Of a stretch of 53,315 bases of DNA, positions 10,022 to 50,911 are shown one piece after another. Within the stretch, counting starts at the first letter, position 1. Each line of letters starts with the position of its first letter. The notes beneath the pieces were generated by a model. It was not told where the DNA came from. It saw only the letters and a program-made list of their open reading frames with translations, and searched no databases. Both the position numbers and the translations under genes were made by a program. The DNA is from Cyanobacteriota bacterium (GTDB taxonomy: Bacteria; Cyanobacteriota; Cyanobacteriia; Cyanobacteriales; Nostocaceae): assembly GCA_046045965.1 (NCBI GenBank), contig JBJOKS010000030.1:1-53315 (forward strand), read 5' to 3'.

Positions 10022-12097
10022 TTATTGATAATGTCTGATCACCTCTGCAACAGACCAAGCTTGAGCGATCGCACCTCTGGGAAAATGGGGTTCATCACCA
10101 TCAAAAATTTCCGAAATTGAACCTAAACAACCATTAGATGAAAAATGATCTAACAACGGTTTCCAGTCAAAAGGTAAGGGTGTTTCCGGATAAAATCGTT
10201 CCCAAGCGCGAATATAAGCACCGATCAACCATGTCCAAACCGTACCTTGATGATAAGCGCGATCGCGTTGTTGCGGACTTCCTTCACATTTTCCCTGATA
10301 TTCTGGATCACTAGGATCAAGACTGCGTAAACCATAGGGAGTTAATAACCGCGAAGTTGCTAAGTCCACAACTTTTTGTCCCTGCTGTTGAGAAAAAGCA
10401 CAATGACGCAGAGATAAAGCTAAAATAGCATTGGGGCGAATTTGGGAATTACGACTATCATCTAAATCAATGAGATCATATAAATAACCTAACTGGGGAT
10501 GCCAAAATTTTTGTAAGGATATTTTTACCAGTTCTGCTTGTTGTTGATAACGTTGTTTTTGACTGATTAAACGACTAGAATGATCTATATATTCATGACT
10601 TAAATGTTCTGACCATTTAGTTAACCAACATAAAGCAGAATACCACAAGGCATTGATTTCTACTGCCTTACCGCAACGTGGTGTGACAGGTATTCCTTCT
10701 ATCAGTGCATCCATCCATGTTAATGCTACACCTTGAGCATCCCAAGAAACCAAACCATCAATAGCGTCAACTTGAATATTATAACGAGTACCGCTAATAA
10801 AAGCTTTATGAATTTGCTGCACAATGGGAAATTGTTCTAACAAAAATTCCCAATCTTGAGTAGTTTCTAAATAAAGTCCTAAAATTTCAATCCACCATAA
10901 AGCAGCATCAATACTATTATAAAATGGTTCGTTATCTACATCAGGAAAAGTATTAGGTATGAGTCCATGACGACAGTAACGTCCAAAGGTTTTTAACAGT
11001 CCTTTGGCAATTTCAAAACGTCCTGTTGTTAATGTTAATCCTGGTAAAGCAATTAATGTATCTCTTCCCCAATCATTAAACCAATGATATCCTGCAATCA
11101 CTGTAGGACCTGCTATGGAATCACGATAAACTATAAATTGATCACTAGCTTTGAATAGTTGTTGTTGAATAGGTGATAGCTGACAGGTAATAGGTGAAAG
11201 TAAAGAAGAAAGTGTCAGGTGAGAATTTTCTCCCCTCCTTCCTATTTCCTCATCTCCCCACTGAAAAATTTGAGCAAGTCTTTCTTGTTCTGCGTCTACT
11301 GCTTCTGTAAAACTATCAGGGGAAAAAATTTCTTGGGAGTCGGGTAAACCTACTTTAGCTTCTAGGGTGACTGTATCTCCTGGTTGCAAATTTACTGTTA
11401 AATATCCAGGACTATATAAATCTTGGCGATCGCCTAATCCCCTTTTTGTTTCTTCTGGTAAACTATAATTCCAGTACCATAACCCATCTGCTTGATATTT
11501 TCCCTGGGTCCAGCGTAAATGCCAAGGTGTACCAAAGTTACCACAATGGTTTATTTGTAAACACAGTATATTTTGATGGAGTAATTGGGAAAACTGGATT
11601 TTTTCATTACCTATTTGTTGATGGTGAAAATTGCGATCGCCTATTAACAACCTTAACCTTAAAATCCCTAAATCCTTACCCTCATACCGATATTGAATCA
11701 AAATTCTTTGGCTATTCTCCCTATTTCCCCATCTCTCCATCTCTCCATCTTTTCCTAGCAAACCATTTGGCATCATCAATTGTCTAGATAACTGCCAATT
11801 ATCCCCACTCCACACCCATTTGGGAACTGGGTGAATATCAAAATGGTGCAGAAACTTATAGCCTGTTGGTGCAATTTGACCACTACCCCATAAATTTGTC
11901 CCCAGTGCTATGACTTTCCCCGATATTTCTAAACTTGCTTCCAAGTGAGAAAGTAATAATTTTCGTCCTGAAGGTGGATTCGTAGCGGCAAATAACCAAC
12001 CATGATAAGTCCTTGTATGCACATCCGCAACTGTACCACTGGCAAAACCACCCAAGCCATTGGTTAGTAACCATTCTCTAGGATCTAAATCAGTCAT
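10022..12097 (-). CDS. Amylo-alpha-1,6-glucosidase (glycogen debranching enzyme)
   Basis: REWLLTNGLGGFASGT, AGYHWFNDWGRDT, TWMDA, YHQGTVW and QAWSVAE motifs. Confidence 0.95.
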   Translation of the reverse strand: MTDLDPREWLLTNGLGGFASGTVADVHTRTYHGWLFAATNPPSGRKLLLSHLEASLEISGKVIALGTNLWGSGQIAPTGYKFLHHFDIHPVPKWVWSGDNWQLSRQLMMPNGLLGKDGEMERWGNRENSQRILIQYRYEGKDLGILRLRLLIGDRNFHHQQIGNEKIQFSQLLHQNILCLQINHCGNFGTPWHLRWTQGKYQADGLWYWNYSLPEETKRGLGDRQDLYSPGYLTVNLQPGDTVTLEAKVGLPDSQEIFSPDSFTEAVDAEQERLAQIFQWGDEEIGRRGENSHLTLSSLLSPITCQLSPIQQQLFKASDQFIVYRDSIAGPTVIAGYHWFNDWGRDTLIALPGLTLTTGRFEIAKGLLKTFGRYCRHGLIPNTFPDVDNEPFYNSIDAALWWIEILGLYLETTQDWEFLLEQFPIVQQIHKAFISGTRYNIQVDAIDGLVSWDAQGVALTWMDALIEGIPVTPRCGKAVEINALWYSALCWLTKWSEHLSHEYIDHSSRLISQKQRYQQQAELVKISLQKFWHPQLGYLYDLIDLDDSRNSQIRPNAILALSLRHCAFSQQQGQKVVDLATSRLLTPYGLRSLDPSDPEYQGKCEGSPQQRDRAYHQGTVWTWLIGAYIRAWERFYPETPLPFDWKPLLDHFSSNGCLGSISEIFDGDEPHFPRGAIAQAWSVAEVIRHYQ

Positions 12098-33005: not shown

Positions 33006-33051
33006 TGGCTCAGGTCAGAATTGAACTGACGACCCCAGGCTTATGAGTCCC
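33006..33051 (-). tRNA. 3' half of a tRNA(CAT), probably tRNA-Met; displaced att core, not an intact gene
   Basis: Minus strand GGGA-CTCATAA-GCCTG-GGGTC-GTCAG-TTCAATT-CTGAC-CTGAGCC-A gives anticodon loop, T-arm and acceptor 3' strand; no D-arm or 5' acceptor strand upstream. Confidence 0.85.
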
Positions 33052-33120: not shown

Positions 33121-33199
33121 TCCCTTACTCCAAAAGACTTATACACTCCTTTTTGAGATAAACTTGACATCCTAGAATCCCAAGCTTAGGATTGACTCA

Positions 33200-33350
33200 G
33201 GCTATAGTACCCAAGTCAAGTTGAAAACAATGGTTAGTAAACTCTGACTTAACCCGCATCTGTGGTGGAAAGCTTCGCGTTAGTACATCCAGGTGAACTG
33301 AATACCCAACTTACCTGGAGAGAAGTATACAGGTCAACTCTCCTATAGCT
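33200..33350 (+). ncRNA. Putative small structured RNA with two GAA/AGUA loop-E hairpins
   Basis: Closing stem ggctatag/ctatagct; hairpin aagtca-agtt[GAAAACAATGGTTAGTA]aact-c-tgactt; variant gtg[GAA agc ttcgc gtt AGTA]cat. Confidence 0.6.
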
Positions 33351-33484
33351 TTGTGCTGCAATTTGGGTGTTTTAAGGGCTTATAATTTTCTTAATTATAT
33401 TCAAATAAATCTTCTCACAAGAGGCTAGGTGTCTTTCTTGACAACCTAGCTGTGTGTTTGTTATTCCTCTAAAGAAGCTAAATA

Positions 33485-43599: not shown

Positions 43600-44952
43600 T
43601 TAGTCAATTGCGCTATCTTGAAATAATGTACTGTCATCAACATTAGGTTTATCTTTAGAGTCAGTCAAAGCAGCAGAATATTGAATGTTTAGACCTTTTT
43701 CATTATCTAACTGTTCTAGCTCTTTTAATGCTTCCTCTTCAGTTAAACCTTCAGTTTCAATTAGGTATCGCTTCCTAGAAATTAACTTATGTCTAACAGC
43801 TTCAATTTGCAGTTTCTTATCTTGTAAATCTCTAGGCATCATGTCAGGTAATTCAACCCTAAATGGAATGTCAATACCTAACTCTAGGAATATAGTTTTA
43901 ATAGCTGAAATTAAATGGTTAGCTCTGGTTAATGTACTTTTTTGCAATGGTTCATACAAAACAGAAAGAGAAGATGAACTAGAAGCTGACCTAGCATTCT
44001 GTAGCTCTAAAACCATTACTCCAGTTAGATTATAAATATCTTGGAGAATGATTAATCTTTGCCTTTCTAAGTATGGGCTATCAATTGGTTGTAGGTATCC
44101 AATTTTAGGAACTATCCCCAATTCAGCAGCAGCATTAGAGATAGGAAGATGGAGAATTGAAGCACCATCATTAGTAAATGCTGTTTGGAAAGCTGCACTA
44201 CCTGTAGGTGAATCTACACTCTCAAGTTGACTTGAATTAGTTCTACCAATAATAGCAGGTGCAGATGTTCCAATTGTGTAGACTTGAGGTTTATGATGTT
44301 TGCCATTAAGATTAATTCTAGACCTGACTTCACAATACTCAAGCTGCAAATGAATTAATCTTTCAATAGCAGACTGAGCAGTGCGTCCATCCAAGGAATT
44401 CACTAACCTAACTATAGGAATGTGATCACCTAAGTCTACTGGTTCACCTCCATCTTGTTTAACAAAATATCTATAAGATGGTAAGTTGAATAAATCTAAA
44501 CTTGACTGATTCTCTGTGGGGAGAGTCAGATAATGTTCTACCTTTACCTTTTTGTAAGTGTTAGTAACTGGGTCATAAATTTCTCTATTTTCCTTTAGGT
44601 ATACAACCTTCAATGGATCAAGAGGGTCAACCTTTACATCATCAATATCAATTGTTCTAATATGACGTAAGTTGCCATCAGAAACCTCAATATAAGCCTC
44701 TCCAAAGATGGGAACATCAGTGTAAACATCATTCAGTAAACTATAAAGTTTAATCTGCTCTAATTGAGAATTTAACTCTGATTGCTGCTCAGGATTGATA
44801 GCTAAGAATTTAATTTTCTTTGCAAACCCATCACCCAGTAAAAATGATTTAAGTTGCTCAACTACTAGCTGAATTAATTTAATTGGTAACTCTCTATTGC
44901 CAGCAGGATTTATACCTTGATAAGCATCCTTTAATTCTTGTTTGCTTGCCAT
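43600..44952 (-). CDS. Portal protein
   Basis: 450 aa, first gene of the head operon; FGEAYI, IPIVRLVN...SAIE, SASSSSSL and LISRKRYL...TEEEALKELEQL patterns resemble SPP1-type portals. Confidence 0.78.
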   Translation of the reverse strand: MASKQELKDAYQGINPAGNRELPIKLIQLVVEQLKSFLLGDGFAKKIKFLAINPEQQSELNSQLEQIKLYSLLNDVYTDVPIFGEAYIEVSDGNLRHIRTIDIDDVKVDPLDPLKVVYLKENREIYDPVTNTYKKVKVEHYLTLPTENQSSLDLFNLPSYRYFVKQDGGEPVDLGDHIPIVRLVNSLDGRTAQSAIERLIHLQLEYCEVRSRINLNGKHHKPQVYTIGTSAPAIIGRTNSSQLESVDSPTGSAAFQTAFTNDGASILHLPISNAAAELGIVPKIGYLQPIDSPYLERQRLIILQDIYNLTGVMVLELQNARSASSSSSLSVLYEPLQKSTLTRANHLISAIKTIFLELGIDIPFRVELPDMMPRDLQDKKLQIEAVRHKLISRKRYLIETEGLTEEEALKELEQLDNEKGLNIQYSAALTDSKDKPNVDDSTLFQDSAID

Positions 44953-45169
44953 TTAAAAATAAGAATTTACTTATATTTATTATATACATTAATTTGGCTG
45001 ATGAAAAGTAGGCTGAATGATAAGAAGTATAGATAGTTGGTTTAATATGTATGTTCTGTACCAGTAGGCTGGGGCAGGTGACTTATGGCGGGGGGTGTAA
45101 TAAAGTTGTCTATAATATTCAAGGTGGCAGACAGCTACCCTTTTTAATTGAATCATGCCCTTAACATTC

Positions 45170-46123
45170 AGTGGTCTTAGGATTGTGTGCGGAACTTATT
45201 CTGCCTACTTAGTAGGATGTGTGCCAGTTCCTATTCTGCCTGAGACCAAAGGTGTTTAGATGAAACCATTGAGACTTCTACATGAAAGACTCTTAGGAGG
45301 CTGACTAGTGTGGAGGTGTAGATAGTTGACTTAGTGAAAACTTCTTAGGAAGCTGATTAGCTTTGTTAACTGTCTGCAACATAGGTTGATGGGATTAAGT
45401 TCTCGCCCTGTGTTCTACAATGCGGATTAGTCTGTAGCCTATAGAAGGAATTGTAACAGTCCCAAAAGACCTCTATGGTTAGGGAAATGTTTAAGCCTTC
45501 TATACTCTCTGCAACTGTAACTCCCTCAGAAGACCCTAGTGGTTAGAGGTTGTAGTTTAAGGTAGAGAGCTGAATGGTCTGTTGCTGAAAGCTTTAGTTT
45601 AGCTAATATCTTACAGTGAAAACAATGGTTAGTAACTGTGAGGTACATGACTGCGGTAAGTTGGGAAAACAATGGTTAGTACCTAATTGCCAGAAGCAGC
45701 ATGAGCTAAACTAATTGGGCTAGTAAGCAGCAGTTGGGTGTATACTCCCTAAGTTTATAGTTAGTCACTCTTTATTCTGTTCTTCTTTAAGAGACTGTTT
45801 AGCTTCTCACCTGTAGTTATCTAAGGTCACTCACCTAGTGCTGAACGCTTCAGTGGTAAGACCTCAGTTAGCCCCTCACTAGAAGAGATATCTAGGGAAC
45901 AGCTAGGTAAACTTAGAGTACAGCTCTAGGTAACTCACTACTGAGCCTACTAAATAGATGCTTCAGTAGTCAGCCTGTAGTGTCTAGATATACAGTCTAC
46001 TTAATCTTCACTCACTAAGAGACAGTGGGAACAGTAAACAGCACATACAGGAATTAACAATCTTTAGTTTGCAAACAATCTTTATTAACACATCTCTTCA
46101 ATAGCTGTTAATAGAGTTTTTTT
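45170..46123 (+). ncRNA. Putative large (~0.9-1 kb) modular structured RNA
   Basis: ORF-free; consecutive stems with G-U pairs on the + strand, duplicated covarying modules and three loop-E motifs; TATAAT at 45111-45116 and a hairpin plus U7 at 46080-46123. Confidence 0.75.
46080..46123 (+). terminator. Putative intrinsic terminator closing the structured region
   Basis: ctttattaaca/tgttaatagag stem followed by T7. Confidence 0.5.
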
Positions 46124-46171
46124 AACAATAGACAGGCACATCAATAATCAGTAAATAAGGAAATCACAAAT

Positions 46172-46612
46172 ATGAATACATACTTTCAAGAAGCCTTAAT
46201 GGTAGTTCAATCAGAACAGTTTAGTAATGAGTTCAAGTCAACAGTTAAGTTTATTCTAAGATTAGTTAACTTATTGTTTTTAGTAATAGCTGGTTTATTT
46301 ATTTTAGTTAGGGGATTTTTCTGTAGACAGCCTAAGCATAAACAATTAACAGAAGTAACAGAAAACAGTAATGAGTCTACTAATGAGGACAGCAATGATG
46401 TAGAGACTTTAGAGGAGCAGGATATTAGTGATTCTAGTTTAGAGAATCAGACTGAGGTTGATAAATCAGGGAGGCATAAAGAGTTAAAGTTAATGAAGGC
46501 TGCTCAACTTAGACAGCTATGTGGGGCATACTCAATTGACTATAAAAATAAACTTACTGCTATTGAATCAATACTTTCACATGAATACTGTGATGTAGAA
46601 ATTCCATTCTAA
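46172..46612 (+). CDS. TM-anchored protein with acidic linker and a C-terminal HeH/Rho-N-like domain
   Basis: TM at about aa 28-50; ELKLMKAAQLRQLCGAYSI...KLTAIESIL; RBS aagga; ends EIPF. Confidence 0.6.
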   Translation: MNTYFQEALMVVQSEQFSNEFKSTVKFILRLVNLLFLVIAGLFILVRGFFCRQPKHKQLTEVTENSNESTNEDSNDVETLEEQDISDSSLENQTEVDKSGRHKELKLMKAAQLRQLCGAYSIDYKNKLTAIESILSHEYCDVEIPF

Positions 46613-46627
46613 GTTAACTCTTTTTAT

Positions 46628-46655
46628 TTAGGGAATAAATAGTTATACTCCCTAA
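46628..46655. terminator. Hairpin between convergent genes
   Basis: ttaggga...tccctaa stem. Confidence 0.5.
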
Positions 46656-47701: not shown

Positions 47702-47854
47702 ATGCGACTAGATAGAATTACTTCAATCAGACTATATGCAGGTCATGGTGAACAACTACAAAAGATTGCTGATTTGAAGGGGCTAGATAAAGCAGACATC
47801 ATCAGAACAGCAGTCAAAACATATTTAGACAATTACAATAGTCAATCCCTATAA
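47702..47854 (+). CDS. Ribbon-helix-helix (CopG/Arc-like) repressor, 50 aa (not in the ORF track)
   Basis: MRLDRITSIRLYAGHGEQLQKIADLKGLDKADIIRTAVKTYLDNYNSQSL*: beta strand TSIRL followed by two helices. Confidence 0.8.
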   Translation: MRLDRITSIRLYAGHGEQLQKIADLKGLDKADIIRTAVKTYLDNYNSQSL

Positions 47855-48859: not shown

Positions 48860-50911
48860 ATGCAAAGAATTAAACTAAATCAACAATACCTCAACTTTAA
48901 GAATCCTAATACTAGAATTTTAGTAATTGAATCAGGTAAAGGAACGGGCAAAACTAGATGGATGGAAGATAACCTAGCTGAAATTCCCGCTTTATTTTTA
49001 AGTCATAGAATAGCATTAACAAAAGATTTAGCTAACCGCACTGGGTCTGCTCATTACTTAGATAACTCTGCTCATCAGTCAAAAAGGTTAGTAATATGTG
49101 TTAACTCTTTAATGAGTTTACTTCATTCTGATACTCACAAAGGCGCAACTATAGTAATTGATGAAGCTACCCAAGTATTAAGACATCTAATAGGGGAAAC
49201 TTGTTCAGCTAACAGACAAGAAATACTGAATACTTTAGGTAACAAAGTATATAACTGCTCACAGTTAATATTGCTCGATGCTGACATGAATCAGGAGACA
49301 CTAGACTACTTTGTTAAATTGTTCAATTACAAGGATGTGCAAGTAACTCCAGAAGACATTACTTGGGTGACTAATAGTTATCAGCCTAAAAAGAGAGTAT
49401 TTAAAGAGTTTCCCACTTCAGAAAGCTTGCAGTTTCATCTTATTAATGACTTAAAAGCTGGCTTAAACTTATATATTGCTGCTGATACTCAAGCTAGAGT
49501 GGAAACAATTAACTCCCTGATTGATTCTGCAAAGATAGAACTTAAAGGAAAGCTAACTGTACATGGTTCTAACTCAGCCCAAGAGAAGCAAGTAGACTTT
49601 ATTGCTAACGTCAATGAGTTACAGAAAAACTACCAAGTTGTTATAGCTTCTCCAAGTCTGTTTACAGGCGTTGATATTAACCAACCTCACTTTGATAAAG
49701 TATACCTGTTTGCTGATGGGGCTTCTGCTACTGCCACTGACCTATTACAAGCTTCAGCAAGAGTAAGAACTGTATCAGAAGTTAACTTCTGGATCACTTC
49801 AAAGAAAAATAATGAGCTTACCTCTTGGGAAGAAATCTTAAGTAACAAGGAGAGAGTTGCCTTTGGTACAGGTTGGATGAATAGTGTTGACTCTGAGTTA
49901 AGAGCAGCAAGAGGAGGAGATGTTTGGGCTTGGGACTTTGATATAGCTACTGGAACTTCAAAGGTTAGAGACAGTGTGTATATGACTATGTTCTGCCAGC
50001 TACAAGCTCTACAGAATAAATCTCTTAATGATTTACATAGTTCCTTTGTTGAGGCTGCTGCTAGAGAAGGTAAAGTTGTAACACATAAACCTACTGAATC
50101 AGAGATTAAGCAATTAGAGATAGTTAAAGAAGCTACAAAGATTGTTAGAAGACAAAATAAGCAAGCTAAACATCAAGCAATCATAAATGCTCCTGACCTT
50201 ACTCCAGAGAATTGGTTCTTATTAGATACTGATCCTGATGTACTGTCTGTACAAGAAGCTAACTCTCTTAAGAAACATAAGTTGCTGAAGTTAATTGGAG
50301 GCTTAACTGAGTATTTACCTGAAGTAGTGAAGAATGAATCTAAGTGGTTTAAAGCTATTTACTATCAAGGGTTACTGAATAGAGACTTAGAAGATTTGGC
50401 TCAACAAGATGAACTAGATGTTAGAACTAAAGCTCCTAGTGACCGTAAGTACAGAGTTAAGACAGTAAACTTGATTAGAGAGTTCTTAAAGAGAGTTAAC
50501 TATGAAGGTTCATTACTAAGAGGTGAAGAGTTATCAGCTTTCTATTCTGAGTCTGAGGTTAATGCTCCCCGCGCTAACCATAGTTGGTTTACCACTCATG
50601 CTATTGAGTTTAAAGAACTTCTGAACTTATCTGTACCCAAGAATGTAGAAGATAAACCATTTCAGTTTATTCAATCAGTATTAAGTGTACTAGGACTGTC
50701 TACTACAGATAAGCAAGTGACTGTGCGTACAGGGGATGTGATGGTTGCTATGGGTTCTCTAGGGGTTTATCCAACTAAAGATGCAGATAAGAAAATCAGA
50801 ATCAGAAAGTATTATATTGACTCTTCTTCAGTTGATATAATGAACTCTATTTTGGCAGCTAGAGAAGCTAAATACAGTAAACAAGAGGAGTTAGTAGAGT
50901 TACCATTTTAG
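48860..50911 (+). CDS. Origin-binding SF2 helicase / replication initiator (CyRepA-like helicase domain)
   Basis: SGKGTGKT, LSHRIAL, ICVNSL, VIDEATQV, LLDAD, IASPSLFTGVDI and QASARVR motifs. Confidence 0.85.
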   Translation: MQRIKLNQQYLNFKNPNTRILVIESGKGTGKTRWMEDNLAEIPALFLSHRIALTKDLANRTGSAHYLDNSAHQSKRLVICVNSLMSLLHSDTHKGATIVIDEATQVLRHLIGETCSANRQEILNTLGNKVYNCSQLILLDADMNQETLDYFVKLFNYKDVQVTPEDITWVTNSYQPKKRVFKEFPTSESLQFHLINDLKAGLNLYIAADTQARVETINSLIDSAKIELKGKLTVHGSNSAQEKQVDFIANVNELQKNYQVVIASPSLFTGVDINQPHFDKVYLFADGASATATDLLQASARVRTVSEVNFWITSKKNNELTSWEEILSNKERVAFGTGWMNSVDSELRAARGGDVWAWDFDIATGTSKVRDSVYMTMFCQLQALQNKSLNDLHSSFVEAAAREGKVVTHKPTESEIKQLEIVKEATKIVRRQNKQAKHQAIINAPDLTPENWFLLDTDPDVLSVQEANSLKKHKLLKLIGGLTEYLPEVVKNESKWFKAIYYQGLLNRDLEDLAQQDELDVRTKAPSDRKYRVKTVNLIREFLKRVNYEGSLLRGEELSAFYSESEVNAPRANHSWFTTHAIEFKELLNLSVPKNVEDKPFQFIQSVLSVLGLSTTDKQVTVRTGDVMVAMGSLGVYPTKDADKKIRIRKYYIDSSSVDIMNSILAAREAKYSKQEELVELPF

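Follow-up and report, generated by a model that had tools for sequence, protein, structure and literature searches.

A modular and apparently undescribed structured RNA with repeated internal loops in prophages of Nostocaceae

Small RNAs of the CsrB/RsmZ type are sponges that repeat a GGA motif in their apical loops and bind one protein, and the hairpin ribozyme carries a loop A beside a loop-B-like element. To our knowledge no function is known for GOLLD, ROOL and comparable large RNAs of phages. According to the respective reports, cages are formed by the prophage-borne RNAs ROOL and GOLLD (PMC12286853), ROOL is very abundant (PMC12286853, PMC5737381), the OLE RNA is localised to the membrane through a partner protein (PMC3413148), and the pseudo-ToxI of phage PhiTE is a repeat-expanded RNA mimic which serves as a protein decoy (PMC3594212). 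An 800-nt transcript of ICP1 has, according to its report, a similar setting to the RNA described here (PMC7567579).

The window, i.e. the whole stretch of 53,315 nucleotides that was analysed, is contig C30 of a Nostocaceae genome (G000) and carries a prophage of about 20 kb, which extends from about position 33006 to the contig end. The minus strand of the prophage encodes terminase, fibre, capsid and portal proteins and the plus strand an antirepressor and a replication protein, with an integrase at the end; the partial tRNA at its left end is likely a remnant of the attachment site. Domain D, the branched element picked out by an earlier sequence-only reading, is sited on the strand opposite to that of the head operon, in 1.2 kb of intergenic DNA that separates the portal gene from a 146-aa ORF (p146) (Table 1). 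Searches of 389 family genomes located the portal in 13; named relatives belong to Nostoc, Nodularia and Cuspidothrix. Portal searches revealed 0 viral loci and matched one short metagenome contig, and BLAST against phages and plasmids gave no meaningful match. A 50-aa ORF upstream of the antirepressor gene (47702-47854), presumably similar to a ribbon-helix-helix repressor, is kept across these prophages. The replication gene slot (48860-50911 in the window) holds unrelated proteins in different prophages: an origin-binding helicase type in the window and in L026, and other proteins of 475-575 aa elsewhere.

Table 1. Coordinates of the RNA, its domains and the neighbouring features in the window
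Feature	Position	Strand	Remarks
Partial tRNA, CAT anticodon	33006..33062	-	Rfam tRNA, E 2.6, under gathering score
Second RNA-like element, ~170 nt	33164..33372	+	two GAA/AGUA hairpins (33223-39, 33268-85)
Portal gene, first of divergent head operon	43600..44952	-	phrog_533, E 5e-4
G+C-rich element upstream of portal gene	45071..45098	.	similar in prophages without the RNA
Terminator-like hairpin + T run just before the RNA	45123..45147	+	stem sequence varies between orthologues
Whole structured RNA core, ends approximate	45155..45741	+	z -4.5 on +, -0.7 on -, 12 shuffles
Domain A, long hairpin	45170..45248	+	two copies of U-rich internal loop (AUUGUGUG/UUAUUCUG)
Domain B, branched	45255..45435	+	three GAA/AYUA loops
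Type F hairpin inside domain B	about 45377-45415	+	read by eye
Domain C	45438..45571	+	two copies of AAYUGUAAC/GUUUAAG internal loop
Domain D, three-way junction with three GAA/AGUA motifs	45579..45733	+	fold, orthologue alignment, covariation
Domain D GAA/AGUA sites	45587-89/45722-25, 45618-20/45631-34, 45665-67/45678-81	+	
Conserved box TACTCCCTAAGT	45743..45754	.	second copy at 46646
Tail region	45806..46124	+	five CTCAC copies; hairpin + T run at about 46081-46124
p146, 146-aa ORF	46172..46612	+	hydrophobic helix, linker, C-terminal domain

Domain D proved to be one domain of a larger RNA of about 590 nt, and not the complete element as which it had been presented. Comparison of this RNA with the closest described systems revealed partial likeness to several of them. 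Like GOLLD and ROOL, it is large (several hundred nt), highly structured and prophage-encoded; however, GOLLD and ROOL often lie near tRNA islands, whereas the window contains 0 tRNA genes and its partial tRNA lies 12 kb away, and unlike them the RNA carries repeated motifs in domains that are lost or reordered, and conserved apical loops are missing from domain D. With OLE it shares a length of about 600 nt; OLE reaches the membrane through its partner protein, and the RNA described here has a gene for a protein with a hydrophobic helix downstream of it. OLE is chromosomal, whereas this RNA is prophage-borne; the sequences are unrelated, and the product of the neighbouring gene is 146 aa long, has a SAP/Rho_N-like domain and is a candidate partner. 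A putative binding motif repeated along the RNA resembles CsrB/RsmZ, but four or five kinds of internal loop are found here. The multiplication of a folded unit by a phage RNA is shared with pseudo-ToxI (PMC3594212); pseudo-ToxI, in contrast, consists of tandem 36-nt repeats, whereas several types of internal loop on branched helices are found here. A search of the array for the type III antitoxin feature, a tandem family of near-identical direct repeats of ~36 nt, detected none, and there was no Rfam match. The domain B loops are 6x8 in size, like hairpin ribozyme loop B; Rfam gave no hairpin ribozyme match, and no loop A was seen by eye. An RNA anti-CRISPR, being a solitary repeat, would resemble a host CRISPR repeat. 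When the three types of host CRISPR repeat were compared with the RNA by eye, domain C shared just GTTT/AAC-like ends with them. The CRISPR arrays of G000 are located on C6, C45 and C66 and have up to 52 repeats.

In the Rfam search the window gave no match that reached the gathering score, and matches in the region and in seven other loci were at chance level only; the best match (E 0.14) was to an unrelated microRNA model, and there was no match to GOLLD, ROOL or OLE. The RNA fails the tested defining features of each known family compared. No description of it was found in the literature; an earlier unnamed prediction is possible in the supplements of PMC5737381 and PMC10690425, and two motifs of the RNA are absent from the six supplementary files of the latter that were searched.

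The sequence-only reading had described domain D as a branched fold with three GAA/AGUA motifs and twin identical 17-nt loops. All eight of the quoted helix strands that were looked up sit where they had been placed, and exact copies of the 17-mer start at 45618 and 45665. A third exact copy at 33223 had been overlooked (the genome holds three matches at ≤1 mismatch). The 17-mer is the longest exact repeat in the 1.2-kb intergenic stretch, where 1000 mononucleotide shuffles reach at most 14. The described fold on the plus strand has a predicted energy of -57 kcal/mol (z -6.4), a stability that none of 200 shuffles equalled; on the minus strand z is -2.5. Arm 2 of the window needs one bulged U for the GAA/AGUA register, and the minimum free energy fold pairs the G of GAA. 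Its apical pair probability is 0.40-0.46, against 0.78-0.90 for arm 1; arm 2 pairs cleanly in L047, L052 and L054. The identity of the two arms is a property of the window and not a conserved feature, as it occurs in one of six orthologues. Among candidates from viral contigs, 14 matches to the 17-mer were attributed to chance because the flanking stems are missing, and 11 matches to the domain D pattern were rejected as they gave no score with model R1.

Alignment of six orthologues showed that GAA/AGUA is kept at 18 of 18 domain D sites, each of which parses as GAA-NNC...KYU-AGUA, while the stems covary. As in the loop E 3D motif, GAA lies opposite AGUA between helices at all of these sites and stays constant while the helices change. 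Of the cells predicted to be paired 95.7% are so, and 28 of 52 predicted pairs show two-sided change; 0 of 500 shuffles scored as high and slid partners were paired in 27-39%, controls that overstate the covariation somewhat, because the structure was derived from the same, related sequences. In arm 1 the change is two-sided in 9 of 11 pairs, which on this alignment would be hard to obtain otherwise. Invariance was found for 20 of 21 motif columns, against 39 of 132 other columns; the one exception is an alignment shift, and one block was indexed one column early in this count, so that it included an invariant U in place of the equally invariant final A. The apical loops differ from one another in both sequence and length (AATG, CTTGT, TATAT, TTTGG, TTTG, AAG, AATT). 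Judged by the alignment, the structure of domain D is under selection. The earlier proposal of protein-binding or docking sites is upheld in so far as the loops are conserved as expected of loop E or bulged-G surfaces under selection; its second part, mimicry of rRNA, is not. A conserved loop need not mean a protein site, however, since sarcin-ricin-type motifs are common architectural elements of which bulged-base variants exist (PMC8450098).

The GAA/AGUA core of domain D is common to the sarcin-ricin motif and the loop E of eukaryotic 5S rRNA, but its polarity to the hairpin tip is reversed with respect to the sarcin-ricin motif and a GNRA cap is missing. In the 23S rRNA of a related genome the AGUA strand comes first and the GAGA cap follows one pair later, whereas in domain D the GAA strand comes first and the cap lies on the opposite side. 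The pattern of the sarcin-ricin loop (SRL; AGUA on the 5' side, one pair, GAGA tetraloop) matched 0 of 8 arrays. A search for it in the window's own genome gave no match; the rRNA comparisons use related genomes. AGTA is absent from the 5S rRNA of G565, which speaks against a 5S loop E mimic. Sarcin-ricin mimicry is unsupported because the motif faces the wrong way and has no GAGA cap.

The whole RNA is closed by a long-range helix of 45155-45160 with 45734-45741, which is predicted in the folds of all seven orthologues. The seven orthologous arrays have z values of -4.5 to -10.3 on the plus strand and weaker ones on the minus strand in every case (12 shuffles each). As in domain D, the stems of domains A, B and C covary around constant loops: two-sided change was found in 9 of 25 pairs of domain A (5 sequences), 11 of 13 pairs of domain B (12 hairpins) and 8 of 13 pairs of domain C (8 copies). 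Each domain repeats one type of internal loop in two to four copies; those of domain B are loop-E-like, with a pyrimidine replacing the bulged G. The domain order is A, B, C, D in the window and B, A, C, D in L021. L047 is without B, L052 is without A and has C nested inside B, and L054 lacks A and B by pattern and carries two F hairpins on a D-type scaffold. In L030 domain D is absent (model R1 ≤17.7 bits) and four B loops are present. The second C variant and the F hairpin of the window are readings by eye, and the sample comprises seven arrays from six genomes, several of them closely related. Read from these sequences, the RNA is modular: orthologues differ by the loss, duplication and reordering of whole domains.

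L052 and L054 are two related prophages of one genome (G565) with identical portals and different sets of RNA modules; L047 and L048 are likewise a pair within one genome, with identical portals and different sets. Model R1 matched 2 of 151 family genomes, which had both been used in building it. Patterns for A and B detected 0 viral stretches, and the B pattern over 401 genomes gave four matches, three in known prophages and one at a stemless site.

The hairpin of domain D is also found in an unrelated small RNA scaffold at the left end of the prophage, with GAA/AGTA kept in five of six hairpins in three prophages (window, L059, L097), one of which lacks the array; in L097 one of the two GAA strands reads TAA. 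This second element sits behind TTGACA-17-TAGGAT, a near-consensus sigma-70 promoter; of 11 genomes of a related genus, two carry it.

Expression of the RNA is moderately supported. Sequencing runs were searched with the orthologue L052 and not with the window sequence. The L052 array was detected in 20 of the 24 runs listed, 17 of which are recorded as RNA, from 12 studies, and half or more of the L052 words were present in seven runs. Metatranscriptome contigs lie on the L052 array in all four runs compared (four studies), and those of three runs all end at 11058-11067, with no loose end, in the 5' strand of the closing helix; as the contigs carry neither strand nor level and RNA runs only were compared, the shared end is a weak hint only. 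The contig of one run also covers the L052 tail region, and loose ends of the L052 RNA contigs run into an L054-type module. No contig was found on the flanking phage genes in the four runs, a gap that carries no weight.

Several elements border the RNA. The G+C-rich element upstream of the portal gene is possibly a cos site. By strict pattern, 12 of the 13 prophages whose upstream region is intact carry the box TACTCCCTAAGT, in one to three copies on the same strand (L048 is too short for the count). Since prophages that lack the RNA have it too, it is probably a DNA site. In the minus-strand reading it begins with a TANACT-like hexamer, and a late promoter and a terminase site are both possible. 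The tail region folds no better on the plus strand; the CTCAC copies (five in the window, three to six in orthologues) and GCTTCAG repeats at 45806-46015 may be DNA-binding sites.

The best reading of these data takes domain D as one plug-in domain of a non-coding RNA, about 0.6 kb long, that the prophage encodes. As to the function of this RNA, we tentatively prefer a multivalent decoy, or a platform to which proteins bind, because constant internal loops sit on variable stems in several copies per domain, and because domains come and go and the D hairpin is reused in another scaffold. Independent binding units fit these features better than one rigid architecture. The RNA would be made in lysogens and act in trans; each loop type would be a putative binding site for one ligand and the repeats would give avidity, so that the RNA would titrate several RNA-binding proteins of the host or of rival phages, e.g. 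nucleases or sensors of defence systems. Up to three copies of a protein that recognises stem-GAA-NNC/KYU-AGUA-stem would bind to domain D. Against a decoy stands that the searches revealed neither a ligand nor a host counterpart: the host genome contains short GAA/AGTA hairpins in numbers no higher than those of control motifs (7 vs 4-10), and the arrays match an rRNA operon only in stretches of 10-17 nt. A pure decoy role also leaves the tight link to p146 and the virion gene block unexplained. Host look-alikes at C4, C27 and C72 turned out not to be such hairpins. A more elaborate form of the decoy is doubtful: interchangeable domains would neutralise different RNA-binding proteins of the host or rival phages, the repertoire would evolve by duplication and exchange of domains like a cassette of accessory genes, and the RNA would be held at the membrane by its own small protein.

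It is rather unlikely, and compatible with the decoy reading rather than exclusive of it, that p146 forms an RNP with the RNA, in which its SAP/Rho_N-like domain would bind the repeated loops and tether the RNA to the membrane as the OLE partner does. Six of seven arrays are followed directly by the p146 gene, which none of six array-less prophages carries; among 389 family genomes it occurs in five, always behind an array. A hydrophobic helix (residues 28-46, mean hydropathy 2.7) is followed by an acidic variable linker and a C-terminal domain of three helices in a helix-extension-helix arrangement resembling SAP/Rho_N; in the six members the helix and the C-terminal domain are conserved around a free linker. 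Weak matches to SAP, Rho_N and HeH were found, five of the six members matching Pfam SAP (best E 0.005) and three of them Rho_N (best E 0.001), although the window protein scores 15.1 bits against a cut-off of 23.9. The C-terminal fold resembles the C-terminus of T4 endonuclease VII (Z 6.6, rmsd 2.2, 51 aligned) and the N-terminus of Rho (Z 6.2, rmsd 1.9, 44 aligned), both with Z <8, and an Atlas match (0.89, Rho_N on 20% of members) can serve as no more than a lead. However, L021 has a full array and no p146, L030 has p146 and no domain D, and G563 has the small GAA/AGUA RNA and no p146. SAP domains usually bind DNA, four loop types would be hard to read for one small domain, and neighbouring genes can travel together without interaction.

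A virion or self-assembly RNA is unlikely. It would form an RNA-only oligomer as the cage-forming ROOL and GOLLD do (PMC12286853) or be a component of packaging or the neck, with the loops as tertiary docking sites. The RNA adjoins the portal gene and the possible cos site, and an ORF of 578-763 aa after the capsid gene is absent from all six array-bearing prophages with visible head block and present in all seven others (the upstream region of L060, one of the seven, is missing, and the head block of L021 lies off the contig). Comparison of the window (41718-39982) with L029, L049, L050, L051, L056, L058 and L060 revealed a short head-neck block with the RNA (capsid, 223 aa, 335 aa) and a long one without it (capsid, 578-763 aa, further ORFs, about 457 aa). 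The division into two types also shows in the neck protein. Neither type has a recognisable tail tube or tape measure gene; the short-block prophages may be satellites that need a helper. For the large ORF a low-confidence model (pLDDT 44.8) gave no fold match, and the Atlas returned a weak, discoidin-like lead (0.80). Array presence changes at least three times on the portal tree and on the capsid tree, with clustering no greater than for shuffled labels. The link between array and head block may be functional, or it may reflect two phage lineages that swap head genes. A fixed assembly is hard to fit because whole domains are dispensable or reordered and apical loops are not conserved, and the RNA lies on the strand opposite to the head operon.

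A cis-acting leader or put-like antiterminator for the downstream p146, repressor, antirepressor and replication genes is improbable: the RNA lies on the same strand as these genes with terminator-like hairpins on its flanks, and one RNA contig covers the L052 tail region, but array-less prophages keep the downstream genes without the RNA, no alternative fold was seen, and the D hairpin also occurs in a stand-alone small RNA which faces convergent genes. Very improbable is a mimic of the rRNA SRL or the 5S loop E which would decoy ribotoxins or translation factors. The motif is of the sarcin-ricin class and its conserved U before AGUA is also found in the SRL of the related genome, but SRL enzymes need the GAGA cap at a fixed distance, the bacterial SRL is AGUA/GAC and not GAA, and the polarity, the missing cap and the 5S comparison speak against it.

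The modular prophage RNA is real and apparently undescribed, and its structure is well supported. Natural deletion and duplication variants make each domain testable alone, and a candidate protein partner adjoins the RNA. Should the domains be decoys, identifying what they bind would bring to light RNA-sensing proteins of bloom-forming cyanobacteria, and the array would represent an RNA-only counter-defence with several specificities.
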